DNA of 53,181 bases from a virus (lineage: Duplodnaviria; Caudoviricetes), in the IMG/VR virus record IMGVR_UViG_3300005573_001133, positions 1-53,181 of that record. One strand, written 5' to 3'. Positions 26,117-53,181 of this stretch are shown one piece after another. Position 1 is the stretch's first letter. Every line of letters starts with the position of its first letter. Both the position numbers and the translations under genes were made by a program. The notes beneath the pieces are model-generated. The model was not told the origin of the DNA and searched no databases. It was given only the letters and a program-made list of their open reading frames with translations.

Positions 26117-26375
26117 ATTAAATGAAATCACTCTTTTACAGCAATATTTTGACATTTTCAGTATTGAATCGCAGGAAAATACTTGGGATGTCTGGTCAAT
26201 TATGCCCTATTCAGAAGAGCGGCAATGGTGGTCAATCTGTTGGAATCTTTCCGCAGGTCGAATTGAAATTGCACAAAATATTTTCGAGACGATGGACATA
26301 GTAGACATTTTTGAGAAATATGCAATTAAACTGAGTTTAGAATACATACCACGGGAGGAAACCGATGGCAGCTGA
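26094..26375 (+). CDS. Putative frameshift extension of the tail chaperone (T-like), +1 frame
   Basis: Frame is open from 26073 to TGA 26375 with no ATG before 26202; fills the gap up to the tape measure gene. Confidence 0.6.
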   Translation, partial: FVQKLESKLNEITLLQQYFDIFSIESQENTWDVWSIMPYSEERQWWSICWNLSAGRIEIAQNIFETMDIVDIFEKYAIKLSLEYIPREETDGS

Positions 26376-29300: not shown

Positions 29301-30684
29301 ACGAAAAGCTTACGAAGATATGACAAAAACAATTCTCTCGGCTTTCGAGGCAATTTTCTCGCAAAGCAAGAAAATTGCAGAAGAACAAAGAAAACTCGAA
29401 GAAGACAAACGCAAGGGAATGGACGAACTTCTTTCAGATGCAGTTCGGAACAATATTTCCTACAATGAATATATGAAACGACGGCTGGAAATTGAAAAAA
29501 AATATGCAGAGCAATCCAAAGAGCTACAAAAGCAAATGATAAGCGGTTGGAAAGCCGTCGGAATGGGTATTTCAGGAGTTGCCGAGGGGCTGAAAGGTGC
29601 TATAACAGAAAAATACAACGAAACTCTTGCTAATGCCAAAGGAAGCACGGAAGATTTTGCAAAATCTGCCGAGCAAGCCGGTATAATTTTGGGTCTCTCT
29701 TTGATGGAAGGTGCAGCAAAAGGACAAAAGGCTACAAAAGTTTTAGCCCAAACTCTTTTGCAAATGCTACCGAAATTCGTTGCAACATATGCAACGCAAA
29801 TTTGGGGTGCTTTTACTTCGCTCGGTCCTTGGATGATACCAGTTGCATTGGCTACTATGGGCACTTTGTATGCTTTGATGCGAGAAGCATATGCAGCAGA
29901 AGAAGGATATATGGAAGGTGTTAAGGAACGAAAGAAGAAAGGTCCAAGAGATACCCGTTTAATTTGGATAAATCCGAAGGAAGTAGTTTTAACAGAGGAA
30001 ATGGCGAAAAAGAATAAAGAAGTTTTAGAATTTATGTTCAAAACTGGACGGAGTGCAGAAGAATATTTTGAAAGTAAACCCCAATCTCGAAAAGAAGTTT
30101 ATATTCCATCACCTGCAAATCTCCAAAATGAAGAGATGATAAAAAAGAACCGAGAAGTTTTGGAATATATGTTTAAGACTTATCGAACAGCAAGACAATT
30201 TTATGAATCTAAATTATCACAAGGAAAAGAATTTATCTGGATAAATCCCAAAGAAGTTGTTCTGAATGAAGAGATGATAAAAAAGAACCGAGAAGTTTTG
30301 GAATATATGTTTAAGACTAATCGAACAGCAAGACAATTTTATGAATCTAAATTATCACAAGGAAAAGAATTTATCTGGATAAATCCCAAAGAAGTTGTTC
30401 TGAATGAAGATATGATAAAAAAGAACCGAGAAGTTTTGGAATATATGTTTAAGACTAATCGAACAGCAAGAGAATTTTATGAGGAAAAGATTAAAGAACG
30501 AAAAATAACAAGCTCTCCAATGAAAAATACCATAATAAATATTCCTTTTAATGACACCCGTATAGTTCAAAGACTGGAAAGAATCGAAAATGCTCTGCAA
30601 TCGGCAAGGTTATTAGAAGTGCGAAATAGGGTATATATCGAAGATAATCGTAAACCGGTGGTAAATCAATGGATTGGACGGTAA
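26365..30684 (+). CDS. Tape measure protein
   Basis: 1439 aa, helical, with amphipathic repeats and coiled coils. Confidence 0.92.
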   Translation: MAADALVSIGLDVEGITADAKKAVIAIQNELKNLPTNILSKNFQEVSNEARRMATDIKNSMAMLIVSGKQGSEEYKKLEEELKKVTAESKKFEEALKEVDKSLEDVGESGKKLGENTGKGFLEKFKEQIQSGNFNLGSILSGGGKLGVGIAAATGIIEGIKGIANAFQDLYKRGAEIDEMNDSLTRSFMQAGVSTEYLDTQIERANKFATELAFQYGFSKQQIKEYTAQVASLGGLVGPENEKLTKLALGVEKVTEGMVSGEEVIRAFTRGMADPEAASAMERLTKRFPALSNVLRDNVSTTEKLNNALQTLSPTFKQLEEDFAGSDSTFERFSMTLNEIKDKIASGFFDLVNEAIKPLNEALKKIDFSAIGEGIKSAMNVIKEYSQALFSYFKMIYEPIGNILKNLFNGIKEGWGNALSSTKSSLASFFNSIGSIFNFVKNLINGIIEFLRPLLEGIGKLVGDILSGVVEFISNTVGTIIQSFKSIFDEISKLFSDLFGEQVGESINVLDILKSILSEIGNVIKSILQITTQVLNITTKIAVSLVKEVFAAIRQIVNWLKTAYNFLAENIAKAISYVANLFASVYNWISNSITSFLKWLGLLETVKSVINAIYEGIKAAVQWIVDLANKVGNLFGSVEKFLGFRPDEAKKEGEKTGAKVAEGIIDSLRQQGKYLQDALGRYLSMSDEDLKRNKAKIQKLISESNQFLESIKGKSQYSDLYQGISASIQQLQTKLGSLKKEKIEKNELSSAFEKLSSALETSNQSLESFKKQYQETIASLTKSIEETQLETQKIVSERIYEERIAVLEAQKDKIKESGADEIQMQYQLLEIEKQIILEKQKQKENELQVEFEQKKKSLELAREEAKTKIEYAAKEMKEKIRYALEEARTKKQIEKATTEEDLERVEKELQTRMVKIDEETQRQKAEIDEKYNQYIFAVETQYQEKRKSLQESTNREIERKAKEVTQNVSKAITGEAKDVRKAYEDMTKTILSAFEAIFSQSKKIAEEQRKLEEDKRKGMDELLSDAVRNNISYNEYMKRRLEIEKKYAEQSKELQKQMISGWKAVGMGISGVAEGLKGAITEKYNETLANAKGSTEDFAKSAEQAGIILGLSLMEGAAKGQKATKVLAQTLLQMLPKFVATYATQIWGAFTSLGPWMIPVALATMGTLYALMREAYAAEEGYMEGVKERKKKGPRDTRLIWINPKEVVLTEEMAKKNKEVLEFMFKTGRSAEEYFESKPQSRKEVYIPSPANLQNEEMIKKNREVLEYMFKTYRTARQFYESKLSQGKEFIWINPKEVVLNEEMIKKNREVLEYMFKTNRTARQFYESKLSQGKEFIWINPKEVVLNEDMIKKNREVLEYMFKTNRTAREFYEEKIKERKITSSPMKNTIINIPFNDTRIVQRLERIENALQSARLLEVRNRVYIEDNRKPVVNQWIGR
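30127..30482 (+). repeat. About 2.6 near-identical 138-bp (46-aa) tandem repeats in the tape measure C-terminus
   Basis: AATGAAGA(G/T)ATGATAAAAAAGAACCGAGAAG at 30127, 30265 and 30403. Confidence 0.92.
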
Positions 30685-30685
30685 T

Positions 30686-31126
30686 ATGACCTACACGATT
30701 ACAATTTATGGAACAAACATAGTTTTAAACAATAAAACCCCAGCTATAAGCACTTTACAGGGATTAAGCGATATTGTATATGCCAATTTTGAGGTGCTCG
30801 GAATATATGGAACCTCAAAAATCGAGGGGGAAGAACAAACCTATTTTAACAATTCAATTATCAAACGTCCAATTGTTCGCAATACTTATACTATAAAAGT
30901 AGCTCCAAAACCTTTTGATTCAACTCATCTTGACCAATTACTTTCGGAAAATCTCTGGTCAAAAAAATATCATTATCTTGATTTTGGCAACTTTCCTTAT
31001 CGTGTTTCCTACTGCTCACAAACACAGGCATTGTGGATTACTATCGATGAGATTACCAAGGAAGATAAAAATGGACTGCGAAGCATAACTATTACGGTCA
31101 AAGAGGTTATGCCTTATGGCAGTTAA
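30686..31126 (+). CDS. Putative distal tail protein
   Basis: First gene after the tape measure; beta-rich. Confidence 0.5.
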   Translation: MTYTITIYGTNIVLNNKTPAISTLQGLSDIVYANFEVLGIYGTSKIEGEEQTYFNNSIIKRPIVRNTYTIKVAPKPFDSTHLDQLLSENLWSKKYHYLDFGNFPYRVSYCSQTQALWITIDEITKEDKNGLRSITITVKEVMPYGS

Positions 31127-32747
31127 TCGAAATGCAATATATCGCTATCAAACCTCACGAGTTCGCCTCGAATTTGTTCTTGGTGATACAACCTATCTTT
31201 CTAATCCATCAATAATTGACTTACCTTTTGATAGCATACTCAATACAATTAATCTGAAAAGAGCTTTTGATAACGATTTCCCATTTGGTATGCAGCTTTC
31301 GGATGTTCTGGAATTAGAATTCGACTTCTTAACACTCAGACAATGGAATTCCGATTTTGCAAATGCTTTGGAAAATGGTTTCGGAGATTCGTATCTTTTC
31401 AATCTTGGCTGGGATGGACAAGTTCAGAAAATTTTTGATATTCCTAACAGCATAAAAGTTTATGTCGATAATTCACTGGTTTTCTGGGGATTCCAAGAAA
31501 GAAAACCTGAGACCGAATATTCTATAAAAAACGATAAAATTACACTTAAAATTACATTCATTGACGCTTTTCGAGCAGTTTTAGAGAAATTTGCTATTGG
31601 TGAAGTCATCTGGGATTTCGACGATGTTTCTGTGAAAAATGAATGTCGAATCATTGATTATTATTATGAAAGCAATGTAGATTTAATGTATGTGCAGCGA
31701 TGGAATAAAAGAGTTGCGTTTATTTCGTGGAACAAATTAAAAGAATTAATTGATTATACTGCCTCTTATATTTTTAAAATTTTTTCACGGCAAAATTCTA
31801 TTGGAATAGCACTAAATTGGAACGTCTCGACCGATTTCCTACCAGGTTGGAACTTCTATTCCTTTAAGACGGACTCGAAAAGAATGGAAAAAGACCAATT
31901 GAAGCAACAAAACGAGCTCCAAATTGTTTGGGAAATATACGACAATAATCTAATCATAGGTGGATTAGCAAAGCAAACTGTTTCCACTTGGGACTTTTTG
32001 AAAAAGCTTGCCGAAAATTTCCTACAAAAAGTCTCTTTTGCCTATAATTCATCAGGGAATTTAGAAATACTTTTTGAGCCTTTCCCGAAAAATCAAATTT
32101 GGTCTCAATTTGATTCCGCAAAAATAGGCAAGGAAATAACAATCCGAAAAAATAAGAACTGGATAGGCTCAATAAAACAGCAGAATGAAGACGCTTTTGA
32201 GTTTGATTTTCAAACAATTGAGCATCAAAACTCAAATACCGAGGCAGAGAAATCAATCGAAATAGAAATTCTTTTCTCAAATGCTTGTCTTGGAAATACA
32301 TCGGAAACCCAATCGGTTGTAAACGATATCCAACTTTTCTATGCTCGAAACTTAATCAATCCCAAAGGTATCTATTTCTTTTCTGGGGAAGATTTTTACA
32401 AAGTTTCAGACCAATGTTATTTTTCCTATTATGGAGATTCTACACTTCCCGATGAATTAGTATTCGGTTCTGACCGTGAATTTATGGAGAAAGTTTCCTT
32501 TCGCTACCAAAAGTCTATGCACGAAATAATTCAAAAAGTAATCGAACAAAAAATGATGAAGGTGGGAAATTTTGAGATGGAGTTCGAGTATATGGACATT
32601 ATCCCAGTGCTTGGACATAAAGTTGAACTCACAATCCCACATTTAAACTGGGGAACTCAATATCCTGTAGTCGTGAACACCGAAATAGATTTATACAAAG
32701 AAACAACGAAAGTTAAACTATTTTGCTGGAAAGATGCCACTGATTGA
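31116..32747 (+). CDS. Putative tail hub/baseplate protein
   Basis: 543 aa, second gene after the tape measure. Confidence 0.5.
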   Translation: MAVNRNAIYRYQTSRVRLEFVLGDTTYLSNPSIIDLPFDSILNTINLKRAFDNDFPFGMQLSDVLELEFDFLTLRQWNSDFANALENGFGDSYLFNLGWDGQVQKIFDIPNSIKVYVDNSLVFWGFQERKPETEYSIKNDKITLKITFIDAFRAVLEKFAIGEVIWDFDDVSVKNECRIIDYYYESNVDLMYVQRWNKRVAFISWNKLKELIDYTASYIFKIFSRQNSIGIALNWNVSTDFLPGWNFYSFKTDSKRMEKDQLKQQNELQIVWEIYDNNLIIGGLAKQTVSTWDFLKKLAENFLQKVSFAYNSSGNLEILFEPFPKNQIWSQFDSAKIGKEITIRKNKNWIGSIKQQNEDAFEFDFQTIEHQNSNTEAEKSIEIEILFSNACLGNTSETQSVVNDIQLFYARNLINPKGIYFFSGEDFYKVSDQCYFSYYGDSTLPDELVFGSDREFMEKVSFRYQKSMHEIIQKVIEQKMMKVGNFEMEFEYMDIIPVLGHKVELTIPHLNWGTQYPVVVNTEIDLYKETTKVKLFCWKDATD

Positions 32748-33390
32748 AGCTAAACCAAGAAGCATTTCGCAAAGACACTACTTTGGACTGAAAAACCAAG
32801 TCATAACAACGACGGAAATCCAAACAGCGAAGAAGAATACAATCCCAAAATTTTCACTACCTATCAACCATTGGCATCCAGTAGCCACCTCAAACTTTAA
32901 GATTTATGGTAGTTTCAGCGGAAATTATCCGGTAGGCATCAACCACAAAGTAACTTTCACCAACATCCAGCTTGATAATAGAGAAAATGGTTACATTCAA
33001 TATTTCCCCAATCGAAAAGAATTCCAACTTTTTCCCAAAGGGATATATCAAATAGATGTTCATTTAGATTTGTGGCTTAATAATGCATCTTTACGGAAGT
33101 TAACAACTTTTGAGCTAAAATTGATAAAATTTTCACCTTACCAAATACAACCTATATCTTCTTATCACCTCAATGTTATCCCTATGTTTGTTGAAATTTT
33201 ATACGGGGAAACACAAAGATATTTTTTCCCCTTTGCTTGTGTGCAAGGTTCAATAATAATAGAAGTAACCCCTGATGATTTTATTTATCCAGTTTTTAAT
33301 TATCAAAGAATGCTAGATGGGACAGATATTGACATCAATGATTCATTTGAAGCATATATAAATTTTTCATATATAAAGGAGGTTTTATGA
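32734..33390 (+). CDS. Putative tail tip/receptor-binding protein
   Basis: GIYQIDVHL jelly-roll-like pattern; position. Confidence 0.45.
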   Translation: MPLIEAKPRSISQRHYFGLKNQVITTTEIQTAKKNTIPKFSLPINHWHPVATSNFKIYGSFSGNYPVGINHKVTFTNIQLDNRENGYIQYFPNRKEFQLFPKGIYQIDVHLDLWLNNASLRKLTTFELKLIKFSPYQIQPISSYHLNVIPMFVEILYGETQRYFFPFACVQGSIIIEVTPDDFIYPVFNYQRMLDGTDIDINDSFEAYINFSYIKEVL

Positions 33391-33938
33391 GAGCAAAAAC
33401 AATTGAGTATATCTATCAAAAAGGAATAATTGACATAGTTGATTCAGGAACTTTAACCGTCGATACAACAAATTCTTATGCAGAAGGTGATTATCTTCAC
33501 GATGGCGTAATTGTTTGGAACAATATTTTTCCCGAGCTAGTTGATTCTTTTATTCATCTCGAAAAAATTGAGGTTTTCGAGGAAATTCGGGGAACAGGTA
33601 GCCTCGTAAAACCAGCATTCGATTTGTATATCTTTAATAATTGTAAGGCTCAACCAAATGTTTCCAAAAACAATCCGTTTGTTTATTCCGATATTTTCAG
33701 CGATACTTATCCAATGGAAAATAATCTTGTAAAAGTCTCATTTCAAACTGCTGATTGGTTTGAGCATACCGAAGCATCTAATAATATTGCCGACGCAAAG
33801 GCTATAAAATCAGTTGATTTTTATCTTCGCAGCAACAATAGTCAACATTTGTTTGGCATTGCCATTGCAACCAAAGCTACCATCCCATTTGCCTCTTCTG
33901 CACGCTTTAAAATAGTATTATGGGCAACGTTGCTATGA
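33387..33938 (+). CDS. Hypothetical virion protein
   Basis: GGAGG RBS; coupled ORF. Confidence 0.55.
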   Translation: MRAKTIEYIYQKGIIDIVDSGTLTVDTTNSYAEGDYLHDGVIVWNNIFPELVDSFIHLEKIEVFEEIRGTGSLVKPAFDLYIFNNCKAQPNVSKNNPFVYSDIFSDTYPMENNLVKVSFQTADWFEHTEASNNIADAKAIKSVDFYLRSNNSQHLFGIAIATKATIPFASSARFKIVLWATLL

Positions 33939-33939
33939 T

Positions 33940-34887
33940 ATGGAAGAAAAAATCAAGGAATATATTGCTAAAAACCCATTCCTTTCAAATCGTAAACTTG
34001 CTGAGCTTATTTTAGAGAGAGAAAATTTCCCTTATACTCACGGAACTATGCGGCAAATTATAGGGCGATTAAGAAGCAAAATCGCTGAAAAATACGAAGA
34101 TTTTGAAACCGAAACCGCTCTTGAACTACCAGAAAGTTGGTATCACGAAGAAAAGGATTACGAAGTTCCAAGCCGAGAAAATAGAATTGCGGTTATAAAC
34201 GATATCCACATTCCCTTTCATTCAGTTGAAAATTTAAAAATTGCTCTGGATTATATTTACAACTGGCAACCTACTACTATAATTCTAAATGGCGATATAT
34301 TGGATTGCTACGCTATTTCTAGCTTTGCCCGAAATCCAAAGTATAGAGATTTCAACAAAGAAATTGAGCTGGGACGAAAATTTTTAGAATACATCCGCAA
34401 ACGTTTTGAAAATGTGCATATAGTTTATAAGTTTGGTAACCACGAACAGCGTTTACAATTCTATCTCTGGCGAAAAGCAGAGGAACTAAGTGAAGTTCAA
34501 GAAATACAACTCGAAAATCTTTTGCGATTATATCAATACGATATTACTTTTGTCAATGAAAACCAGTTAATTAAAATTGACAAATTATATGTCCTTCACG
34601 GACACGAAATTCCTTCTGGCGGCGGTTTGGTAAACATTGCTAGAAACATTCGTTTAAAATCAGCTGAGAATGTCCTTTGTGGGCATTTCCATCGCTCACA
34701 AGAAGATATTGTAACAACACTTAGTGGAAAAGCTATTGGAGGCTGGGCTGTTGGAGCTTTATGTGGCTTACGTCCACCCTATCGACCAGTTTCTTTTTGG
34801 AACGCAGGTTTTGCGCTCATTGAAAGAACAGATGATAGAACTTTCTCTATTGAGAATAAAAAGATTATTTTAGGGAAAGTTCTATGA
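33940..34887 (+). CDS. Calcineurin-like metallophosphoesterase with an N-terminal HTH-like segment
   Basis: DIHIP, NGDILD, GNHE, HGHE and GHFH motifs. Confidence 0.9.
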   Translation: MEEKIKEYIAKNPFLSNRKLAELILERENFPYTHGTMRQIIGRLRSKIAEKYEDFETETALELPESWYHEEKDYEVPSRENRIAVINDIHIPFHSVENLKIALDYIYNWQPTTIILNGDILDCYAISSFARNPKYRDFNKEIELGRKFLEYIRKRFENVHIVYKFGNHEQRLQFYLWRKAEELSEVQEIQLENLLRLYQYDITFVNENQLIKIDKLYVLHGHEIPSGGGLVNIARNIRLKSAENVLCGHFHRSQEDIVTTLSGKAIGGWAVGALCGLRPPYRPVSFWNAGFALIERTDDRTFSIENKKIILGKVL

Positions 34888-35146
34888 GGTTCGATTTTGT
34901 AAATTGCAGAATCATTGCGAAATAAATTTACCTTCGAGGTTCGATTTCGCACGTTGCAAAATCATTGCGAAATCATTACAAAAAAGAAAACAATTATAAA
35001 CAATTATGAACAATTTCTCTTTTCGATTTCCCTTGATTTTCTTGAATTTGAAGAGCTTAAAAAATGGGGTTGTGACCCTAACGGGGTCACTCACTCACCG
35101 CATCAAATCTTCATTTCCGCTGGTTCGTTGCAAAATCGTTGCTAAA
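34886..35146. other. Putative attP: arm-type repeats around a palindromic core
   Basis: 38-bp direct repeats at 34886 and 34936, (A)AATC(A/G)TTGC motifs on both sides, core GTGACCCTAACGGGGTCAC at 35072-35090 next to the integrase stop. Confidence 0.65.
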
Positions 35147-36150
35147 TGTTTCTCGAAATACTCAAAATCGGGGTTCCGCATATATTCCTTGAACTGAACA
35201 TTTACGCTTTGACCTGCAAGACGGGCACGAATATCAACTGGTATCCCTAACTGACTCCATCGATTGATAGCAGTCTTGCGAATCGTATGGAAATTCTTTC
35301 TTGGGTCAATGTCCAATTTCTTTCGTAATTCCCTAAAATCCTTTGCAAGCATTGCCCCACTGGGATATGGCACAGGTTTGGGAAAACCATTTTGTTTTGC
35401 TTCTTCTAATAACTGAATAACCTCCGGAAAAAGTTTATAAGGAAATAATCTAATCCGCCCCATTTTCCCGTGTATTATAAAACTATTCTCTTCTATATCC
35501 TGCCATTCCAATTTCACAAGCTCAGAAAGTCGCATTGCGGTGTAATATGCCAATTCCAAAGAAATCCGTAGGCGTTTATTCTTTTGTGCTGCTTCTATGA
35601 TTTTTGCCCATTCTTCATTGCTATATGTTCTTGGAGGCGGAGCTTGATATTTCGGTCGAATATCTTTGGTAATAGGATTCTTTTCTATCCATCCTTTTTC
35701 AACGCAAAAGTTGAAAAAATAATGGAGAGAACGCATTTTCCCATCCATCGAGTTATTACTAATCGGAAGTGTATTTCGCACTTCGATTATATGCTGTCGA
35801 ATAGCCTCATAATCATCAATAAACATATCATCAGCAGATAAAAATTGTCTAAATATCGAAAAATATTTCTTTTGTGTGCCTTTATTTCGTGTAACCAGCA
35901 CTTCTTTATAAAAAACTTCTTTTGCTTCTTGTAAAGTTACAGGGTGCATCCGATATTTTTTGAATTCCTGTATTCTTTCTGTAAGAATTTGCATTGCAAT
36001 GGTTCTATTTTGCGGAACCCATCGCAAATTTGTGGCTTTACGAACCCCATTTACAGAGGTGTATACCTTTCCGTTATGTGGATAACAGAAAGCACGCACA
36101 TACAGTGGATGCACCCACCTATTTTTCGACGGCTTGGCGTAACGGGGCAT
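35095..36150 (-). CDS. int: Tyrosine integrase
   Basis: TAMRLSEL (R), HGKMG (K), FHTIRK (HxxR), AGQ and C-terminal Y; SAM-like core-binding domain. Confidence 0.92.
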   Translation of the reverse strand: MPRYAKPSKNRWVHPLYVRAFCYPHNGKVYTSVNGVRKATNLRWVPQNRTIAMQILTERIQEFKKYRMHPVTLQEAKEVFYKEVLVTRNKGTQKKYFSIFRQFLSADDMFIDDYEAIRQHIIEVRNTLPISNNSMDGKMRSLHYFFNFCVEKGWIEKNPITKDIRPKYQAPPPRTYSNEEWAKIIEAAQKNKRLRISLELAYYTAMRLSELVKLEWQDIEENSFIIHGKMGRIRLFPYKLFPEVIQLLEEAKQNGFPKPVPYPSGAMLAKDFRELRKKLDIDPRKNFHTIRKTAINRWSQLGIPVDIRARLAGQSVNVQFKEYMRNPDFEYFEKHLATILQRTSGNEDLMR

Positions 36151-42767: not shown

Positions 42768-43056
42768 TTGGAACAGATAAAAGGTTGGAACAGATATGGA
42801 ACAGATATGGAACAGAAGGAAAAATTTTATAAATATTTTAAAAATCAAGGATTTACCGAATTTTGGAACAGGAACAGATAATTTTGCCTATAGAGGACGT
42901 ATTTTACTCCCCATTATACCCCATATTATTCCTTATATATATTTTTTCTCTTCTTTTTTTTATAATATCTGTTCCATACTGTTCCATATACCTTTGTTCC
43001 GCTATACATCAGCGGAACAGAACGGAACAGATATTCGGAACACATCGGAACGGAGA
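42768..43056. repeat. Putative replication origin with GGAACAG(ATA) iterons in both orientations
   Basis: Non-coding gap after the primase with about a dozen GGAACA/TGTTCC copies around an AT-rich core. Confidence 0.75.
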
Positions 43057-43062: not shown

Positions 43063-44313
43063 ATGCTTTGGGAACATCAAATAGAATTAGCACGGCAAGC
43101 CTTTGAGATACTTCGGGATAAACACATTGTTTACCTCGTAATGGAGATGCGGGTAGGCAAAACCCTTATCGCATTAGAAACAGCAAGATTGATTGGGGTA
43201 AGAAAAATTTTATTCGTCACAAAAAAGAAAGCCCTCCCCTCTGTGCTAATGGATTACCAGAGGGAAGGCTACGCCAAACACTTCCAGCTGGATGTGACTA
43301 ACTACGAGCAAACACACAAATTTCGTTCTGGCTACGATTTAGTAGTCATAGACGAAGCACATCTCATTGGAGGCTTCCCAAAGCCTACACTCCGAGCGAA
43401 ACGCTTAAAACGAATCGTGCAAGATGCATACCTTATTCTCATTTCTGGGACGCCGACACCCGAGAGCTACTCTCAAATTTTCCATCAGTTTTGGATTTCC
43501 GACTTCTCACCATTTCCACATAAGAATTTTTATCGCTGGGCTGATGAGTATGTAAAAGTCTACACTATGCAGCTCAACGGCGTCTCCGTGCGGAAGTATG
43601 AGAAAGCAGACGAAGCGAAAATCCAAGCCGTCATATCCCCCTACCTTGTAAGCTATACACGAAAGCAGGCGGGTTTCGAGGTGACCGATGTTGACGAACA
43701 AATCCTCGAAGTTCCTATGCAAGAGAAGACCTATCGCTTTGTGAAGGAACTATTACGCAATCGAATTTTTAAATTCCCTGACGGCGAGGTCGTTCGAGTG
43801 GATAATCCAAGTAAAATGCTCTGGAAAGTGCATCAAGTATATTCAGGAACAATTATTTGCGAGAGCGGAAGCAGAAAGATTATTGATACCTCGAAAGCAA
43901 AAGCAATTTGGCGTTGGTTTTATGGGCGAAAAATTGCAATTTTCTACAAATATATTTCTGAATTCGAGTTACTCACCAAAGTTTTCCCCAATTACACCAC
44001 CGACCCACAAGTTTTTGCTCGTAGTTCCAATGCCATTTTGCTTTTGCAGGTTGCTTCGGGTTCGATGGGGATTGACCTTTCCAGTGCAGAAGCAATTGTT
44101 TTTTACAACATCGACTTTTCCGCAACAAACTATTGGCAAGCACGAAGCAGACTTTTCCATAAAGATAGAAAAAGCGAGGCAAAAGTATATTGGGTTTTTG
44201 CACAAAACGGGATAGAGAAAAAAATTTATTCCGTTGTGCAAAAAAAGAAAGATTACACAGCTCGATATTTTCAGAAAGATTTTATGTTCAACAAAGTCAA
44301 GGATTTAAAATGA
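43063..44313 (+). CDS. SNF2-like (SF2) helicase
   Basis: MRVGKT, IDEAH, SGTP, GIDL and QARSR motifs. Confidence 0.87.
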   Translation: MLWEHQIELARQAFEILRDKHIVYLVMEMRVGKTLIALETARLIGVRKILFVTKKKALPSVLMDYQREGYAKHFQLDVTNYEQTHKFRSGYDLVVIDEAHLIGGFPKPTLRAKRLKRIVQDAYLILISGTPTPESYSQIFHQFWISDFSPFPHKNFYRWADEYVKVYTMQLNGVSVRKYEKADEAKIQAVISPYLVSYTRKQAGFEVTDVDEQILEVPMQEKTYRFVKELLRNRIFKFPDGEVVRVDNPSKMLWKVHQVYSGTIICESGSRKIIDTSKAKAIWRWFYGRKIAIFYKYISEFELLTKVFPNYTTDPQVFARSSNAILLLQVASGSMGIDLSSAEAIVFYNIDFSATNYWQARSRLFHKDRKSEAKVYWVFAQNGIEKKIYSVVQKKKDYTARYFQKDFMFNKVKDLK

Positions 44314-45074
44314 GAGGACTACTTGAAACTTATTACGACATTCAGCGAGTTCGGATTGCCCTTAACAATCAGCTCTTTGCAAAAAATAGCGGGCTTTCCG
44401 AACAGACGCAAGTGCATCTCAAAGAAAAAGTTCTGCACTTTTTGCTTCAAAGCGAAAGGAATTTGCAGAGCTTTATGAAAATTTCGCTGCGTTATGAACC
44501 AATCTGGAAAGAGTGGCTCAAAGATGTCAAAGGGATTGGACCCGTTTTAGGTTCGGTGTTAATATCTTACCTCGAACCAATCGAGCGTTTTCCCACAATC
44601 TCCAAGCTTTGGCGATATTCAGGATATGCTTGCATTAATGGGAAAATTGAGAGACGGCAAAAAGGTGAGAAGCTGCACTATAATCCACGCCTAAAAACAT
44701 TACTTTGGCTTTTAGGTGAAAGTTTTGTTAAATCGAAGGGGTTCTATCGTGAGTTATACGAACAGATGCGAGCGAAATATGATGCCAAATGGAAAACCCC
44801 AGACGATTGCGGGAGTGCAGCTTGCAAGCGTTTCGGGAAATGCCTTGATGCACATCGCTATGCAGCAGCAAAGCGAAAAGTTGTAAAAACATTTCTTGCG
44901 CATTACTGGATGGTTTCTCGACAGCTCAAAGGCTTATCAGTCGAGAAGCCATACATTTTGCAATATTCCGATAAGCATACGCATTTAATTCCACCGCCCG
45001 GATTTGATATCAAATTTGATTATGGGCGTCCAGAATTACCACCAGAATTAGAAAGGTTAATCGAAGCAATATGA
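44310..45074 (+). CDS. tasA: TasA-like Nop-domain protein (IS110-related RNA-binding domain, no nuclease domain)
   Basis: YYDIQRVRIALNNQ coiled coil, WLKDVKGIGPVL, RFPTISKLWRYSG, YNPRLKT, YRELY and H..AKRKVVKTFL motifs; no N-terminal DEDD/RuvC domain; followed by a 36-nt array. Confidence 0.82.
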   Translation: MRGLLETYYDIQRVRIALNNQLFAKNSGLSEQTQVHLKEKVLHFLLQSERNLQSFMKISLRYEPIWKEWLKDVKGIGPVLGSVLISYLEPIERFPTISKLWRYSGYACINGKIERRQKGEKLHYNPRLKTLLWLLGESFVKSKGFYRELYEQMRAKYDAKWKTPDDCGSAACKRFGKCLDAHRYAAAKRKVVKTFLAHYWMVSRQLKGLSVEKPYILQYSDKHTHLIPPPGFDIKFDYGRPELPPELERLIEAI

Positions 45075-45081
45075 TGCGTTT

Positions 45082-45514
45082 AGCCACTTTGAGCATTGTA
45101 ACTAATGGATTTGTGCGAGGCACCTTTTTTATGGTTCCCATATGGAAACTTCGAGCTATTTTAGTCCAGTTGTTCAAGAAATGTGTGCGAGGCAGATTAG
45201 GTGTGTTATCCATTTATCGCATTCGAGCCAGGCGGGAGATGGTTCTTATAATCAGTTTTCGAGGCAGGTTTTACATGTTCCCTATCAAAATTTTTCGAGC
45301 CAGACTAAATTCTCTAAACAAAAAACATATGCGAGCCATAGACCATATGATTTACTTTGCATTATTGCGAGCTTTAAGCAGTATTCTGTTTATGATTTGT
45401 TTGCGAGGCTGTCGAACAATGTTCCCTATTCCATCTTTTCGAGGCATACGAGGGATGTTCCCTATTAAATTTTTTCGAGCCAGACCAGAACTTATATTCA
45501 CAGGCGGTCTTGCG
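45082..45514 (+). ncRNA. TIGR-like dual-repeat guide array, 12 units of 36 nt
   Basis: CGAG recurs every 36 nt from 45116 to 45476; unit = AG(C/G)(C/T)(A/T) + 9 nt + 9-nt loop (e.g. TGTTCCCTA x3, TGGTTCCCA) + 9 nt + T(G/T)CG. Confidence 0.88.
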
Positions 45515-45515
45515 T

Positions 45516-45610
45516 TTCAACCCTCCGGGGTTGAAGATAGTCATTAATAAGTTAAACTTATAAGTTTAATGCGTTTTGGAGCCGAAGACCGCATATCTTC
45601 GGCTCCTTTG
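45516..45610 (+). terminator. Hairpin cluster ending the array
   Basis: TTCAACCC-tccg-GGGTTGAA (45516-45535), palindrome TTAAACTTATAAGTTTAA (45552-45569), GGAGCCGAAGA-7nt-TCTTCGGCTCC followed by TTTG (45578-45610). Confidence 0.65.
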
Positions 45611-45648
45611 TATTATTTTAGTATGTGTTACAAATCAACAATTCTCAA

Positions 45649-45954
45649 ATGCGAGAGAGCGACATACAGCGAAAAATTTTAAAATACCTTGAATCACAGG
45701 GGGGATATGCAGTCAAGGTAGTGGTAGCAAATCGAAGTGGAGTTCCGGATATCTTATATTGTCTTGATGGGGAGTTCTGGGCTTTTGAGGTGAAAAGCCC
45801 GAAAGGTAAACAATCGCCTTTGCAGGCTTGGAACCAAGAGCAAATTGAAAAAGCTGGGGGGAAATATTTTGTAATATGCAGCATCGAGGAAGTAAAACAA
45901 ATTTTGGGTGAATATGCCAAAAGAAAAGGAAATCTTCAACCAACTCCAAATTGA
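45649..45954 (+). CDS. VRR-NUC domain nuclease (Holliday junction resolvase-like)
   Basis: ESDIQ..GVPDI..FEVKSPKGKQSPLQ motif. Confidence 0.9.
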   Translation: MRESDIQRKILKYLESQGGYAVKVVVANRSGVPDILYCLDGEFWAFEVKSPKGKQSPLQAWNQEQIEKAGGKYFVICSIEEVKQILGEYAKRKGNLQPTPN

Positions 45955-46189
45955 TGACCTCACAGATGATACCCGAGAGGTAGCAGAACGAATAGGTATT
46001 GAAAATTTCAGGAAATTGGTGCAGGAATTTGGAGGCACCAATCTTTATATCCCTTTCTTGCGTTCCTTCCCGAAATTTTTATCTCGCATTATTCCACAGT
46101 TATTAACGAATGGATATTCAATCCGTCAAGTCTCGCAACTTCTTAATGTTTCGCAAAATACTGTCAGGAGGTATAGTGGAGGAAATTAA
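45914..46189 (+). CDS. Mor/C-family transcription activator
   Basis: AERIGIENFRKLVQEFGGTNLYIP plus a C-terminal HTH. Confidence 0.85.
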   Translation: MPKEKEIFNQLQIDDLTDDTREVAERIGIENFRKLVQEFGGTNLYIPFLRSFPKFLSRIIPQLLTNGYSIRQVSQLLNVSQNTVRRYSGGN

Positions 46190-46802
46190 GGCAATTTCGT
46201 ATCTATTGCCCTCTGAAATGCGGAGTGCAAAAGGTGAAGAAGCAGGAACTTGTATTCTCTGTGGTGTTGAAACAGAAGAAGGTTTCCCGGTGGAATTTTC
46301 GAGCACTTTTACAGCATTTTCTTATCTTGCATATGGCAACGTTTTGTGTCCATCGTGCAATGCATTTTTCAGAAACCAAGACTTTCGACGACGCAGTTGG
46401 AAAATTACGCCCAGTGGAGTTGAGTTTTTAAAAAGAGAGCAGGTTTTGGAATTTCTTACAACAGAAGAGAAGCCAATTCCTTTTGCGGTATACATTACTT
46501 CCACTGGGCAGAAGCAAGGATGGTTACAGGGTTTTCGTTATGTAAGTTTCTCGAAGCAAAAGTTTTTCATTCATACCGACTTTGTGGGCTGTATTTTAGC
46601 GGAATACAAGCAAGTTGTTGAATTTGCTGAACTAATCAAGTTTTTGCGGGAAAGAAAAGTCTCCAAAACAGAACTTACGAGCGGTGAATTTTCAATGTAT
46701 ACTTATCGACGCAGCATAGAGAACAATTTCGAGTTAGAACTTCGCAAAGCAAAAGAGTTTGTTTCACAACCTTTATGGGAGGTTATGGTATATGTCTGCT
46801 GA
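46176..46802 (+). CDS. csf1: Type IV Csf1 (Cas8-like large subunit)
   Basis: GGAGG RBS with GTG start; CILC..FT...CPSC Zn finger, PFAVYI..GQK motif; first gene of the csf operon. Confidence 0.75.
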   Translation: MEEIKAISYLLPSEMRSAKGEEAGTCILCGVETEEGFPVEFSSTFTAFSYLAYGNVLCPSCNAFFRNQDFRRRSWKITPSGVEFLKREQVLEFLTTEEKPIPFAVYITSTGQKQGWLQGFRYVSFSKQKFFIHTDFVGCILAEYKQVVEFAELIKFLRERKVSKTELTSGEFSMYTYRRSIENNFELELRKAKEFVSQPLWEVMVYVC

Positions 46803-47196
46803 TTATAACGAATTAGAGCAAAAGCTTGTAGATTTTCTTGCTATTCTCTATTCACGAATTAATTGGGGGAAGATGCATACTTCCAAGAATGCACACGATA
46901 TTTTTAACCATCGAGTTCGAGCGGCAGCACGGCGAGAGAATCTGTATGCTTTTGCATCGAAACTATGCAATTATTTCGGGTTACAAAGTTTACCCGAGGA
47001 AGCGCAAGTTGTTTTAGACGAAATTCGACCGCATCAGTATTGGATTTTAAATACACTTTCGACCGAGCATATACCTTTTTGTGTGCGTGCGATTATGAAA
47101 GCAAAACAGATTAAGAGTGAGCGTTTACAAGAAAAGAAAAAGATTGAAAATGTGGAAAATTCTTTGTTTAACAAATTAGAGGTTCAAAATGATTAA
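46792..47196 (+). CDS. Type IV-B small subunit (Cas11-like)
   Basis: Small helical protein between csf1 and csf2 (RVRAAA..FASKLC). Confidence 0.65.
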   Translation: MSADYNELEQKLVDFLAILYSRINWGKMHTSKNAHDIFNHRVRAAARRENLYAFASKLCNYFGLQSLPEEAQVVLDEIRPHQYWILNTLSTEHIPFCVRAIMKAKQIKSERLQEKKKIENVENSLFNKLEVQND

Positions 47197-48025
47197 GAAG
47201 TATGAAGGCTATATGATTGCAAAAACAACTATTCATCACGGTGGCAATGAAAAAACAGGAAGCACACCGATTTTGCGTTCAATTTTTATGTTCGTGGATG
47301 GACTTGGGGAAGTGCAGATTCCTTATATTAACGGCAATGCTATTCGAGGAAAACTTCGCAGAATGCTTATGAAGGATTTCTTTACGAATTTGGATTACAA
47401 TGTTGAGGAACTCAATCCGAAGCTGTATCACGTGTTTTTCAGTGGTGGTGCTTTGGAAAGCACAGAAGCGACTGTGGGAGTTATTGATTTAGAATTGCGT
47501 CGCAAGATTCGGAAAATGTTCCCACCACTTGCTTTAATGGGTGGGGCTATTGGGAATCAAATGATACAGGGGAAACTAAAAGTAGGACACGCTTTTCCAG
47601 TTTGCCGTGAATATTCAGATTTCTTGCCTGAATTTTTGCGAAGCGACCCCAGGGCAAATAAATTCGTTCGAAGCTTTACTGACGAAGCATTTAATACTCG
47701 TCGAGATGATTTACGAGCTGATAGAGAAGAAGATGAACAAGCTGTGCAAATGAAGGTTGATTTTGAATGTTTTATACCTGGAACAAAGTTCTTTCATTGG
47801 TTTGTCACCGAATATACAAATGAGTTAGAAGATGCAACATTCGGGCGTATGATGGAGTTATTCCGTCAATCTCCTTATGTTGGCGGAATGGCTTCGGTAG
47901 GTTCCGGGGAAGTATTCTTTGAATATTCGCCCAACTTTCCGTCCTCGGAAAAATATTTTACTTTCATTGATGAGAACAAACAAGGGATTTTAGAATTATT
48001 ACAAGAAGTCGGGTCACGACTATGA
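47189..48025 (+). CDS. csf2: Type IV Csf2 (Cas7 backbone RAMP)
   Basis: IHHG, IPYINGNAIRGKLRR, FSGGAL, P.LALMGG, GKLKVG, TRRDD, QM..E..IPGT and VGGMASVGSGEV G-loop motifs. Confidence 0.9.
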   Translation: MIKKYEGYMIAKTTIHHGGNEKTGSTPILRSIFMFVDGLGEVQIPYINGNAIRGKLRRMLMKDFFTNLDYNVEELNPKLYHVFFSGGALESTEATVGVIDLELRRKIRKMFPPLALMGGAIGNQMIQGKLKVGHAFPVCREYSDFLPEFLRSDPRANKFVRSFTDEAFNTRRDDLRADREEDEQAVQMKVDFECFIPGTKFFHWFVTEYTNELEDATFGRMMELFRQSPYVGGMASVGSGEVFFEYSPNFPSSEKYFTFIDENKQGILELLQEVGSRL

Positions 48026-48789
48026 GTGAAGAGAAAGAATATCTTTATTTTGCTGATAAAATTCTCAATGGAGTTTCTGAAAGGTGGGGAAAGAAATGGA
48101 ATTATGAGCCGTTAGAAGTTAGAATATATCTCGCAACGCCTTTGGTTTTAAACCATCCTTGGGTGCATCTTGATGGTGTTCTTTCCCACCTTGCACTTCG
48201 CAAAGCATTGAGTCAAGATTACTATCTTTTGCCTGCGAAATATCCAATATCGAAAATCACCAAAGGATTAGAACTTCCCAATTTCCCGATTCGCTATGCT
48301 GGGGCAATTCCACAAGCCTCAATTTCATTCTTTGAGAATGTAAAGCCTCGAACCGAAGTAGTTTATAAGAAATTAGAAGATAGGTGGCTGGGAATCGTAA
48401 AAAAACTATATCACGGTTCAGGGTATTTCAAAGATTACGCAATGAAGCATATTTATATACCTACCCCACTAGTAAAATTCTATGTAGTTGGAGATAAAGA
48501 AGGATTATTAGAGATACTTTCCGAGCTGGTTTCACTTGGAGATAATTCCCGTTTAGGCTGGGGCTATATCAGCAGAATCGGGATAACTACAATTAATGAA
48601 GACAAGAGCATAGTTCACGAAGGGAAAGCGATGCGTCCCATACCTGTGAGATTTTGCAAAAGTTGGGCTGACTCTTTTCTTCTTGCTTGGCGTCCGCCCT
48701 ATTGGTCAACCGATATGGTAGAAGAATGTGTTCCACCGGGTTCAGAAGTTGAGCTTTTACCAGAAACTATCGAAAAGATGAGGTTATGA
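48022..48789 (+). CDS. csf3: Type IV Csf3 (Cas5-like RAMP)
   Basis: L.TP..HLDGVL, SGYFKDY, FYVVGD, LGDNSRLGWG G-loop, MRPIP and RPPYW motifs. Confidence 0.87.
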   Translation: MSEEKEYLYFADKILNGVSERWGKKWNYEPLEVRIYLATPLVLNHPWVHLDGVLSHLALRKALSQDYYLLPAKYPISKITKGLELPNFPIRYAGAIPQASISFFENVKPRTEVVYKKLEDRWLGIVKKLYHGSGYFKDYAMKHIYIPTPLVKFYVVGDKEGLLEILSELVSLGDNSRLGWGYISRIGITTINEDKSIVHEGKAMRPIPVRFCKSWADSFLLAWRPPYWSTDMVEECVPPGSEVELLPETIEKMRL

Positions 48790-49490
48790 ACAAACGCTGG
48801 CGTGAAACATTTTCCTTGTGGGGTCAAAGTGAGGAATTCACTCAGAAAGTTGCTGAGGCAAAACAAATAATTAAAGATGCGTTGAATGATTTTCAAAAGC
48901 CATATTGCTCATTTTCGGGCGGGAAAGATAGTCTCGTGATGACTCATCTTGTTTGGCAAATAAAGCCAGACATTGAAGTAATAACATTGGACTATTCGAG
49001 GAACTTTTTGCCGTTGCGATATCTTATAGAAATTAAAGATATTGCTAAAAAATTAGGATGGAATCATCGAGTAATTCGCAGCCGAATTTTAGAAAAAGAT
49101 GAAAATGACGGGATACCTCGAATGATGCAAGTTTTGAACCGAGAAGTTACACCATATTTATTGCGTGAAGGTTTTGACCTTGCCTTTGTTGGAATAAGGA
49201 AAGAAGAGTCATCGGCAAGGAAACATCGAATTGAGGGGCATAGTAATCTTACAAAAATACCCGAAGTGCATCCGGTTGCTAATTTTACTTGGATGGATAT
49301 TTGGGCTTATATTATTTCACGAGATTTGCCATATATGAGGTTTTACGATATCTATGGAAAAGTTGTAGGTTGGGAAAACGTAAGATTTTCCACCTTTTTT
49401 GATAAGGAGCTTGAAAGTTTAGGTGGTTCTAATCTTGATGGGTATTTTTCTTATAGGTATCGTTACAAGTCTCCGCAAAAGCGAGACTAG
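48786..49490 (+). CDS. cysH: CysH-like PAPS-reductase family protein (type IV-B accessory)
   Basis: SFSGGKDS PP-loop, FVGIRKEES..R, HPVANFTWMDIWAYI motifs. Confidence 0.9.
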   Translation: MNKRWRETFSLWGQSEEFTQKVAEAKQIIKDALNDFQKPYCSFSGGKDSLVMTHLVWQIKPDIEVITLDYSRNFLPLRYLIEIKDIAKKLGWNHRVIRSRILEKDENDGIPRMMQVLNREVTPYLLREGFDLAFVGIRKEESSARKHRIEGHSNLTKIPEVHPVANFTWMDIWAYIISRDLPYMRFYDIYGKVVGWENVRFSTFFDKELESLGGSNLDGYFSYRYRYKSPQKRD

Positions 49491-50075: not shown

Positions 50076-50504
50076 TTAATCTTCCGGGAACAGTCGGTCC
50101 CGAAGGTATTTCTCAACAATATGTTCTACCATCTTGGTTATGCTGCGTTTCGAATCTTTGGCAAACGCTACAAGTTTTTCGTAGATGTCCGGTGGCAGTA
50201 ATATTTGCACTGCCTTCCGGTCATAATCTGCGATTACTCGGGCGGATGGGCAACCTTTCGTGAGAAGATGTCGAGCCCAATCCTCCCATCGATTTTGGTC
50301 TATTGGTGGAGTGTCGACGATGATTCCCCGGTCGTTGTCCCAAGGATAGATATTCCCGGCCTCGTCAATACACAGCCAACCGGGAATAATTTTTTCAGGG
50401 TCGTAGTCTTTTGCAACGCCGACCCAAGTGTTGTGTTCCGAGTCCCATTGCTCATAGCAGTAGGGCTCGGCGAGTTCTTCATTTTTCGTAACGATGAGTT
50501 TCAT
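50076..50504 (-). CDS. Unknown domain fused to a C-terminal ribbon-helix-helix
   Basis: KAVQILLPPDIYEKLVAFAKDSKRSITKMVEHIVEKYL RHH pattern; N-domain paralogous to 39600-39887. Confidence 0.7.
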   Translation of the reverse strand: MKLIVTKNEELAEPYCYEQWDSEHNTWVGVAKDYDPEKIIPGWLCIDEAGNIYPWDNDRGIIVDTPPIDQNRWEDWARHLLTKGCPSARVIADYDRKAVQILLPPDIYEKLVAFAKDSKRSITKMVEHIVEKYLRDRLFPED

Positions 50505-51780: not shown

Positions 51781-52269
51781 TTAGCATACCCCTTCTCGGT
51801 GCAACCATTTCCAGAGTCGTGTTCTCATAGCATCCCACGGGGTTTCAGCATCACCTACATCAATCTTCCAAAACTCATTAAGTCGGTCAGCATCGACCTC
51901 AATCGCATTGAGAAGCATCTCGTAGGCGTCGAGGGTGCTTTTCAAAACCTTTTGGCTTCGGGGCTTCACGGTCTCAAAAACCGTGTAAGCTTCTCCCCAC
52001 ATCGGGCTCAGGTTGAAAACATACCAGTATCGCCTCCCTCTTGCCTCCGTATACTCGGAACAAAGTTCTTTCCCTATCAGTCCAGTTCCTTCGGTATTCA
52101 CATACGTTTCACTGTTAATGGTTCCCGAAAACTTCATTCCTTCTCGCCTAACTGCTTCTGGGAAAATGTTTTCCCCGATTTCGTAGATGTGCACGAGCCC
52201 GAAAGCCTTCGCAAAGGCTCGGAAGACTTTCTCTTGTGCTGCTGTCAAGTTCATTGTTCTTTTTTCCAT
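51781..52269 (-). CDS. Hypothetical protein, first gene of the leftward operon
   Basis: GGAGG RBS before ATG 52269. Confidence 0.7.
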   Translation of the reverse strand: MEKRTMNLTAAQEKVFRAFAKAFGLVHIYEIGENIFPEAVRREGMKFSGTINSETYVNTEGTGLIGKELCSEYTEARGRRYWYVFNLSPMWGEAYTVFETVKPRSQKVLKSTLDAYEMLLNAIEVDADRLNEFWKIDVGDAETPWDAMRTRLWKWLHREGVC

Positions 52270-52294
52270 TTCAAACCTCCCTTTTTTAAAAAAA

Positions 52295-52540
52295 TTGTTT
52301 AACAAAATTCGTTAAAGAACTCAATACAAAATTATAACAAAAAAATTAAAAATCCAAATATTTTTTAAAAAATTTTTAGAAATTTTTAGAAATTTTTAGA
52401 AAAAGTTAGTTTTGTATCCTGAATGTTGCAAATAAGGGGGTGCTCATAACAAAAAGTATGCCAGAATTATTTCTAAATTTTTGAACAAAAAGTATGCCAA
52501 TTTGTATTGAATTTTATTTTCCCATTTGTATTTGGTATTT
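52295..52540. promoter_or_regulatory. Divergent control region
   Basis: TAATTTTG on the minus strand (52327-52334), AATTTTTAGA x3 (52371-52400), AACAAAAAGTATGCCA x2 (52448, 52484), TTTGTATTTGGTATT (52525). Confidence 0.6.
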
Positions 52541-52575
52541 ATCCCGCATCCTCACAATTTCGAAATGCACATTGG

Positions 52576-52884
52576 ATGCGAAGAATGGAACCAGCACAAT
52601 ACAATGTAGTAGTTCGGCGATATGTGGACCACGCAATTTCATTTGGGTTCCCTTATGATATTGCACCCTATACCTTTTATGCTTTTGTGCTGGATTTCGA
52701 GGGAAACATAAAACTTTCCTATTCAGTGCAAAAAGATATAGTTAACAACAAAGTGCAAATCCGGGCAAGCCGAAACGATTTTGCCAATATGGAGGTAGGG
52801 AAATATCGCTGGACATTTTTACAAGAAGACTCCGCAGGCTATCGAGTTGAGCTTGTAAATGGCATTTGGGAGTTACAGAAATGA
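52576..52884 (+). CDS. BppU-N-like virion protein (positional analog of 13288-13617)
   Basis: Same position and size; GKYRW..LVNG.W pattern. Confidence 0.55.
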   Translation: MRRMEPAQYNVVVRRYVDHAISFGFPYDIAPYTFYAFVLDFEGNIKLSYSVQKDIVNNKVQIRASRNDFANMEVGKYRWTFLQEDSAGYRVELVNGIWELQK

Positions 52885-53181
52885 TGATAATTGAAGAAAA
52901 AGTGCAGTTAAATGTTATAGATGAAAAAGTTGATTTAGCTTTTCAGTCCCAACCAATTGTTTTAAATGTTTCCCCCCTACTTGTTGGCGGGAATTATGGC
53001 GATATGTGGAAAACTCAATATGACTCCAACCTCGATGGCATTGTTGACAAAAGCGAAATCGTTGCAAGGTATTATGTATGTGGAGAGCAAATCAATAGTC
53101 TCAAAGTCGTTTTTGTCAGCAATGGCAAGATATACAAAGCGGATAGTTTGGACTGGTCAAGTATTGAAAAACTTGTTGGGA
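52881..53181 (+). CDS. Partial structural gene that continues into the sequence at 13885; N-terminus differs from the gene at 13608
   Basis: Hand translation MMIIEEKVQL...QYDSNLDGIVDKSEIVARYY is in frame with the repeat. Confidence 0.8.
   Translation, partial: MMIIEEKVQLNVIDEKVDLAFQSQPIVLNVSPLLVGGNYGDMWKTQYDSNLDGIVDKSEIVARYYVCGEQINSLKVVFVSNGKIYKADSLDWSSIEKLVG
53019..53181 (+). repeat. Copy 2 of the 163-bp repeat, at the window end
   Basis: Offset of 39297 from copy 1. Confidence 0.95.

Follow-up and report, generated by a model that had tools for sequence, protein, structure and literature searches.

The stretch of DNA analyzed here, the IMG/VR virus record IMGVR_UViG_3300005573_001133 (53,181 bases; hereafter the window), very probably carries a TIGR-TasA system, located in the early (replication) part of a temperate phage genome. 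The system consists of tasA, the gene for a Nop-domain protein with no nuclease domain, followed on the same strand by an array of 12 guide units and an intrinsic terminator. The family is already known, having been published in 2025 and being named in NCBI models, and the locus adds no new kind of biology. The window is a single contig covering the whole record, with no terminal repeat. That the system is phage-borne, as a first-pass annotation made from the sequence alone had claimed, is confirmed by the terminases, portals, protease, capsids, tape measure, endolysin, integrase, CI-like repressor and primase-helicase encoded on the contig, with tasA located in the early and replication block.

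The tasA gene (44310..45074, plus strand) opens with an ATG at 44310 that overlaps the stop of an upstream SNF2-type helicase gene (43063-44313) and ends with a TGA at 45072-45074, encoding a solo Nop-domain protein of 254 amino acids (aa) with an N-terminal coiled-coil hairpin. The NCBIfam equivalog model NF052498.1 ('TIGR-Tas system RNA-guided endonuclease') scores 176.6 bits on this protein against a curated cut-off of 100 (E 6.5e-52). Among solved structures, the best match is PDB 9mty_A, TasR with tigRNA and target DNA (E 1.5e-36), and the second is the TasH chain 21kl_A (E 9.2e-18). TasA residues 8-232 align to residues 121-321 of 9mty, all of them behind the RuvC domain of TasR, and just seven TasA residues precede the aligned part (TasR residue 121 onward). 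Pfam detects no nuclease domain, neither the RuvC nor the HNH whose absence marks the TasA subtype; its only match is PF02371, the C-terminal domain of IS110-family transposases, at residues 69-140 with 22.9 bits. The AlphaFold2 model, computed with 30 relatives, reaches a pLDDT of 90.0 and a pTM of 0.85 and displays a long N-terminal helical hairpin. Foldseek ranks TasR first (TMq 0.68), TasH next (up to 0.70) and IS621 after them (0.51), the TasR and TasH matches together spanning 0.62-0.70. In SpTasH, a tyrosine-histidine dyad on a C-terminal loop, formed by Y289 and H296, processes pre-tigRNA (PMC13421893). H223 of TasA aligns with the catalytic H296 and is retained in 29 of 30 aligned relatives.

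By curated hidden Markov model, by sequence match to TasR and TasH and by predicted fold, the protein is assigned to the Tas proteins of the solo-Nop (TasA) type. Since the alignment lies only behind the RuvC domain of TasR and the Tas model is exceeded, it corresponds to a Tas protein without nuclease, which is TasA in the terms of Faure et al., and with no RuvC or HNH domain it is predicted to bind DNA and not to cut it. These comparisons are those that the first-pass annotation had proposed as a check, and they uphold its call of a nuclease-less Nop protein. Public records still label the protein 'transposase' or 'hypothetical', and its PHROGs label is 'transposase'.

Behind tasA lies a dual-repeat array of the kind described by Faure et al. 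(2025), in which two alternating repeats of 8-12 nucleotides (nt) separate 9-nt spacers in units of about 36 nt, each repeat beginning with a box D (UG) and ending with a box C (CCA), with truncated edges at the array ends and a terminator. A leading partial edge repeat (45075..45081, plus strand), reading TGCG and then TTT, sits between the tasA stop and the first unit, and its TGCGTTT recurs behind the last unit at 45511-45517. The array itself (45082..45514, plus strand), delimited by periodicity, end pairing and related arrays, adjoins tasA with 12 units from 7 nt past the stop, starting at 45082, 45118, 45154, 45190, 45226, 45262, 45298, 45334, 45370, 45406, 45442 and 45478. Each unit is laid out as an edge of 5 nt (AG[C/G]CA), spacer A of 9 nt, a loop of 9 nt, spacer B of 9 nt and an edge of 4 nt (T[G/T]CG), with columns 1, 2, 18 and 33 invariant. 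This division, already drawn in the annotation, is reproduced letter for letter in 12 of 12 units. Its strict 36-nt period beginning 8 nt past the stop holds for the start at 45082; the strictness does not extend to the last unit, which has one additional base (37 nt, ending at 45514), and the 7-nt gap is filled by the partial edge.

At a lag of 36, the 432 nt of the array have an identity of 0.492, while 2000 shuffles, each scored at its best lag from 20 to 60, give a mean of 0.309 with a standard deviation of 0.010 and a maximum of 0.378. In 1442 other 432-nt segments of the contig, periodicity at this level is matched only by a 42-nt coding repeat at about 14.7-15.2 kb. The periodicity of the array is far beyond chance. 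Tandem Repeats Finder (48 rows on the window) has no entry at 45082-45514, and a generic repeat finder catches the array only as fragments (families D3 and D6), which supports the earlier remark that such programs would miss these repeats. Rfam has no family on the array; its three weak matches fall under the gathering score and are sited on other features.

The edge repeat is UGCGAGCCA or UUCGAGGCA, and two unit types can be told apart: one with UUCG...AGGCA edges and UGUUCCCUA loops, the other with UGCG...AGCCA edges and A/T-rich degenerate loops. The same division runs through a lineage set of 13 related arrays, the window's included, which comprises 209 units in 54 distinct clusters. Among the 54 distinct units, the loop begins with UG in 41 of 41 UUCG-type units (typically UGUUCCCUA) and in 6 of 13 UGCG-type units, which are mostly A/T-rich and degenerate. 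In the window, the loop repeat TG..T..C.A is well formed in six units, so that the UG and CCA box motifs read into the array by the annotation stand as dual-repeat anatomy and only in half of its 12 loops as well-formed boxes.

The ends of the units covary. Position 3 of a unit can pair with position 34 in 11 of the 12 window units, whereas neighboring bases across one genomic edge repeat can pair in 4 of 11 cases. In the 54 distinct units the combinations of positions 3 and 34 are G-U (37), C-G (13), C-U (2) and U-U (2), 50 of 54 being pairable, and the change from G-C to U-G falls inside a single unit in 50 of 54. In the TasR structure, the two ends of a tigRNA, once processed, pair by way of boxes D and C (Faure et al. 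2025). The covariation is what this structure predicts, which places the processing site inside CGAG, between the covarying bases; and since the unit ends covary and the halves of the genomic repeat do not, what is inherited as a module is a unit of 36 nt whose limits lie within the CGAG of the edge.

The array closes with the truncated edge and rho-independent terminator of TIGR arrays. A first hairpin (45518..45538, plus strand), seen in the minimum-free-energy fold, stands directly behind the last, truncated edge repeat, and the intrinsic terminator (45578..45616, plus strand), recognized from sequence and fold, has an 11-base-pair (bp) stem with seven G-C pairs followed by TTTGTATTAT. The minimum-free-energy fold of 45478-45625 has -48 kcal/mol (z -4.98), and 0 of 200 shuffles are as stable. 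Related arrays whose 3' end is included have the last unit (45478-45514) conserved. The spacers of this unit are partly complementary (GACC...GGTC), and it accordingly forms a hairpin directly ahead of those of the terminator; it may be structural rather than a guide.

What such a system may do is indicated by homologous proteins. FpTasA from Flavonifractor plautii binds 36-nt RNAs. Homologues of TasA bind target DNA and reversibly repress transcription under the guidance of the 36-nt tigRNAs that they carry; MbTasA represses reporter and chromosomal genes and shifts target DNA (Xu et al. 2026 preprint). In the case of PlTasA, the target is unwound and both spacers pair ('Asymmetric DNA targeting', 2026 preprint). 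The two spacers of a tigRNA pair with opposite strands of adjacent 9-bp half-sites, and gaps of 1-2 bp are tolerated; TasR leaves 8-nt 3' overhangs, which fixes the order of the site: spacer A comes first and spacer B, as its reverse complement, second. In the window, tasA and the array would be transcribed as a single RNA ending at the terminator. TasA, probably dimerizing via its N-terminal coiled coil as the model and its homologues suggest, would bind the edge and loop repeats at their U[G/U] (box-D-like) and [C/G]CA (box-C-like) motifs. The precursor would be cut inside the CGAG core of each edge into 36-nt tigRNAs; the covariation argues for the pairing of their ends, and the cut itself is presumed. 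With each tigRNA as its guide, the dimer, which has no nuclease, would reach an 18-bp DNA site that reads as spacer A and then the reverse complement of spacer B; binding there, by analogy with other TasA proteins, would block transcription or another DNA transaction without cutting. The annotation's programmable DNA binder is thus a plausible description of the locus, drawn from the comparison with homologues.

Compared with known systems, the locus most resembles TIGR-TasA as represented by FpTasA, MbTasA and PlTasA: a solo Nop and coiled-coil protein, a dual-repeat array directly downstream, 36-nt units with two 9-nt spacers, repeat ends resembling boxes D and C (here the edges UGCG/AGCCA or UUCG/AGGCA), a terminator and a location in a phage. 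It differs in that the membership of its protein rests on the NCBIfam model and the TasR and TasH structures, and in that its array mixes two unit types and stays open in one reading frame. TaTasR (PDB 9mty) and SpTasH (PDB 9w03, 21kl) have the Nop and coiled-coil part in common with it (TMq 0.68-0.70), and the histidine is conserved; unlike them, the protein has no RuvC or HNH domain. IS110/IS621 recombinases share with it the C-terminal domain that binds RNA (PF02371; Foldseek 8wt9_C, E 3.3e-4, TMq 0.51), whereas here the DEDD domain, the two-loop bridge RNA and the transposon ends are missing and an array of guide units stands instead. An IS110 transposase was accordingly rejected, the protein lacking DEDD, having 254 aa against the 317-318 residues of IS621 chains and matching them at a TMq of about 0.5. 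Archaeal and eukaryotic box C/D small nucleolar ribonucleoproteins (Nop5/Nop56/58) are alike in their Nop-domain dimer and in a pseudo-symmetric RNA whose two guide stretches lie between box C/D-like motifs (Faure et al. 2025), but no fibrillarin or L7Ae partner occurs here, TIGR systems target DNA and not RNA, and no Nop5 entry appears among the Foldseek matches at E <= 0.001. Type IV and type V-M CRISPR-Cas are functional analogues according to Faure et al., sharing guide-directed binding without cleavage and an association with mobile elements, although the proteins are unrelated and CRISPR guides have a single spacer and long repeats.

Several points weigh against a working TIGR-TasA system at this locus. 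Six of the 12 window loops are degenerate and lack the UG start, so that part of the units may guide poorly. As for the putative processing dyad, its tyrosine is one residue off: Y289 of SpTasH aligns with I216, and the tyrosine present is Y215, at a position that in 30 relatives holds Y (15), F (13) or W (2). No sigma-70-like promoter was found upstream of the array by a scan that covers the sigma-70 type only and returned 3 sites in 3.6 kb against 8.2 expected. In two RNA libraries, contigs run from the 3' part of tasA into the first array units of variants 90-95% similar; these assembled contigs are a weak hint of transcription and may stem from contaminating DNA.

For the possible use against competing phages or host genes that the annotation had proposed, target searches gave results at chance level only, and no natural target was found. 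With the array masked, the 12 spacer pairs were compared with the window in either order of the half-sites, permitting up to 4 mismatches and gaps of 0-2; no site with one mismatch or none turned up. The best candidate, which had two mismatches and a gap of 2 bp in the less probable order, was rejected, about 0.16 or more such sites being expected by chance, as an estimate. The 18-mer search suggested by the annotation (spacer A joined to the reverse complement of spacer B, gap 0-2, exact, for units 4, 5 and 10) fared no better in IMG/VR: it yielded 2, 0 and 10 matches, a chance level, all with gaps of 1-2 bp and lying at 1 and 6 distinct unrelated sites. The 54 distinct units, searched against 2.1 Mb of sequence with up to one mismatch, gave 3 distinct unseeded sites and no enrichment, five control sets of re-paired spacers giving 2, 3, 0, 5 and 0 matches in the same 2.1 Mb. 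One of these 3 sites, at 50103-50121 of the window, fits a unit of the related array L165 with one mismatch and a 1-bp gap and was likewise taken as chance. The TIGR-Tas authors state that short spacers yield many false matches, and the null searches agree with this.

TasA relatives and their arrays are widespread. In IMG/VR, 234 of 304 candidate stretches encode TasA relatives, and 73 periodic arrays adjoin tasA homologues in viral loci, 68 of them with period 36. The UGCGAGCCA edge is common to arrays beside TasA relatives of 38-53% identity, accompanied by UUAAAACA loops and a 35-nt period beside relatives of 50-53% and by UGAGAACC loops beside a relative of 38%. In species-representative genomes, 22 relatives of 26-42% identity are scattered across many phyla and therefore offer no clue to the host.

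Closer relatives disclose how the array changes. Searched with a pattern built from the repeat positions alone, metagenome contigs yielded 12 loci, of which 11 carry arrays of this lineage. The IMG/VR contig L001 has flanks of 92.7-93.9% nucleotide identity and keeps the gene order from the helicase to past the type IV-B module described below. Its array has 19 units, only six of which correspond to window units, in the same order, and the array interiors align over only 290 nt at 74.8%. L168, the closest contig, matches the window at 100% over 712 nt and at 98.7% over 4,998 nt and has three units in place of window unit 6; contigs from another sample likewise differ by unit-sized steps inside the array. 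Window units 5, 7, 8/9, 10 and 12 form a collinear backbone of conserved units, between which sit variable cassettes of UUCG-type units, and 24 of 53 unit clusters occur in one array only. A 37-nt unit with a 10-nt spacer A and a GGGG run is present in nine of the 13 arrays (L001 at 2902-2938, L161, L162, L164-L167, L169 and L171) and, recurring so often, is real and not a sequencing slip; L163 carries a 35-nt unit. Turnover is fast and internal, well-formed units being swapped as cassettes between anchors and not in the polar manner of CRISPR. Such turnover in near-identical phages fits a role in conflicts whose other parties change, for example hosts or other mobile elements.

These comparisons also bear on the possibility that the system is a decaying relic whose degenerate loops mean no working guides, which is improbable. 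The six window loops without UG start, the variation of the box-C-like ends and the failure of the target searches to find any target would all suit decay. The tasA gene, however, is intact, with 92.7-100% nucleotide identity among relatives, and the units with degenerate loops are the conserved backbone, their order kept in up to 13 arrays. The covariation of paired ends holds across the distinct units (50 of 54), and well-formed units are exchanged between contigs that are 98.7-100% identical, which argues for ongoing turnover and not for decay.

A further property of the array is a reading frame free of stops. An open frame of 158 codons (45071..45547, plus strand), on record as the predicted 158-aa protein P0214, begins with an ATG that overlaps the tasA stop (ATGA) and spans the entire array. 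In the 54 distinct units, register 0 contains 27 stops against 31.6 expected, register 1, the open one, contains 1 against 13.3, and register 2 contains 41 against 35.7, the expectations being derived from column permutations that preserve position-specific composition. The open-register count was reached in 0 of 5000 permutations. The lone stop sits in a variant edge, outside the spacers, and in the 43 clusters without a window member the open register has 1 stop observed against 9.7 expected. Inside spacers, 0 of 216 triplets in register are stops, compared with 43 of 540 in the other registers (Fisher P 6e-7); column composition predicts 10.8 in register. The pattern used to retrieve the arrays left the spacer positions free and hence cannot have produced the deficit. 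The stop-free frame is statistically firm and specific to this phage lineage. As a general TIGR property it was rejected: 67 other period-36 arrays are chance-like, with permutation P from 0.045 to 1.0.

Signals resembling translation starts accompany the frame. In UUCG-type units, a GAGG in the edge is followed, after 10 nt, by a triplet at the junction of spacer A and loop, in the open register. This junction triplet is ATG, GTG or TTG in 52 of the 54 distinct units (first base A in 28, G in 14, T in 10 and C in 2), and GGAG- or GAGG-like motifs also precede the starts of several genes in this phage. The frame itself (45071-45547) belongs to no Pfam or PHROG family, and on record are only its own protein and one relative.

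Such a frame raises the question of whether the array is foremost coding, for a protein of 12-residue repeats, next to the remnant of an IS110-type transposase and with no guide RNA. This is highly improbable, even though the start codon overlapping the tasA stop, the confinement of spacer stops to the other registers, the recording of the frame as a protein by gene callers and the Pfam match of the neighboring gene to the IS110 C-terminal domain only would each be expected of it. The idea is largely refuted by the 37-nt unit in nine of 13 arrays and the 35-nt unit in one, either of which breaks the continuous frame and thus leaves no conserved continuous protein. The register is still open on both sides of the break. 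A coding repeat would show the reverse of the conservation seen here, where every codon position is fixed in the 9-nt blocks and the intervening stretches are unrelated among units; no family includes the predicted protein, of which two examples are on record; arrays beside the TasA relatives L061 and L062 have a period of 35, in which a frame cannot persist; and the neighboring protein has no DEDD domain and exceeds the cut-off of the Tas model.

If the array is a TIGR guide array, the open register suggests that ribosomes enter and traverse it and that premature termination within it is selected against. That the guide array is read by ribosomes, and that translation matters for its function, is a tentative proposal that falls somewhat short of probable. 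Translation through the precursor may be needed for full transcription or stability of the array, for example as a shield from Rho-dependent polarity, or the array may double as the gene for a hypervariable repeat peptide. In the TIGR-Tas literature checked for reading frame or stop codon, no mention of a stop-free array frame was found; the preprint of Xu et al. (2026) reports that some arrays inside tas coding sequences keep the tas frame.

Downstream of the array, beyond a VRR-NUC-type nuclease gene (45625-45954) and a small regulator-like gene, lies a type IV-B module on the plus strand, identified by PADLOC as Csf1 (46110-46802, 4.3e-40), Cas11 (46759-47196, 6.2e-44), Csf2/Cas7 (47189-48025, 1.8e-72) and Csf3/Cas5 (48022-48789, 1.9e-51), followed by a CysH-like gene (48786-49490; NF002537, 1.8e-14). 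The NCBIfam Csf models score under their cut-offs on the genes of 46110-49490. Type IV-B systems consist of csf1, cas11, csf2, csf3 and a cysH-like gene and have no CRISPR array, cas6 or adaptation genes (PMC8175902). The module is therefore complete and array-less, and the window has no CRISPR-like repeats. Csf2 relatives occur in 45 IMG/VR loci; 40 of the 45 include the cysH-like gene, and 40 include csf1.

It is very unlikely that the TIGR transcript provides the missing guide RNA of this array-less Csf complex 0.5 kb downstream: the complete set of genes at 46110-49490 in a window with no CRISPR array, the native RNA of type IV-B complexes, unknown according to PMC8175902, and the adjacency kept in the close relative L001 would fit, but a strong terminator and two unrelated genes stand between the modules, and the adjacency recurs in 1 of 80 TasA-seeded and 1 of 45 Csf2-seeded viral loci (both on the contig of L001) and in 0 of 22 genome loci, in a partial test with at least 3 kb on both sides in 45 of the 80 and 22 of the 45. 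A recurrent association of TIGR-TasA with type IV-B was likewise rejected, the adjacency being possible in this lineage only, and it is taken as two accessory modules sharing one phage region; no literature joining type IV-B with TIGR-Tas was found. The VRR-NUC protein as a trans-acting nuclease of the TIGR-TasA system was also discarded, its homologues occurring in only 4 of 103 TasA-seeded loci.

Elsewhere, the window contains two sets of head genes. The first (2353-17347) has TerL at 2353, a portal at 4795, a protease at 8599, a capsid at 10105 and an endolysin at 16817; the second (18157-34887) has TerL at 18157, a portal at 19389, a capsid at 21525 and a tape measure at 26365. The G+C content of the contig thirds is 0.409, 0.372 and 0.385, and in L171 a homologue of 51910-53181 abuts a homologue of 13722-15297. 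The two sets could be tandem elements, a phage accompanied by a satellite that carries a capsid gene, or the product of chimeric assembly. No tRNA genes were found in the window.

Other repeats are dispersed along the contig. Direct repeats of 22-38 nt (GAGGTTCGATTT..., TTGCAAAATCATTGCGAAAT) at 34886-35147, between the last tail-side gene and the integrase (35095-36150, minus strand), may be integrase arm sites or an attP region. Perfect tandem repeats (TGGAACAGATA in 2.8 copies, CTGTTCCATA in 2 and CGGAACAGAA in 1.9) at 42786-43031, in the 300-nt gap between the primase-helicase and SNF2 genes, look like iterons or operators. Tandem repeats of 138 nt (2.6 copies, 98% matches) lie inside the tape-measure gene at 30127-30540, and the 42-nt repeats at 14967-15155 lie within a 345-aa open reading frame without PHROG match. 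Faure et al. (2025) note that some tasA genes share an operon with ParB-like genes; in the window, a ParB-like domain is encoded at 151-1329 (plus strand) as a fusion with a DNA methyltransferase, not beside tasA.

The TIGR-Tas literature names as open both what the arrays target and how they gain and lose units, and the 13 closely related natural arrays bear on the question of unit gain and loss. If the guide array is indeed read by ribosomes, the production of guide RNA would be coupled to translation, a coupling undescribed for arrays downstream of tas.

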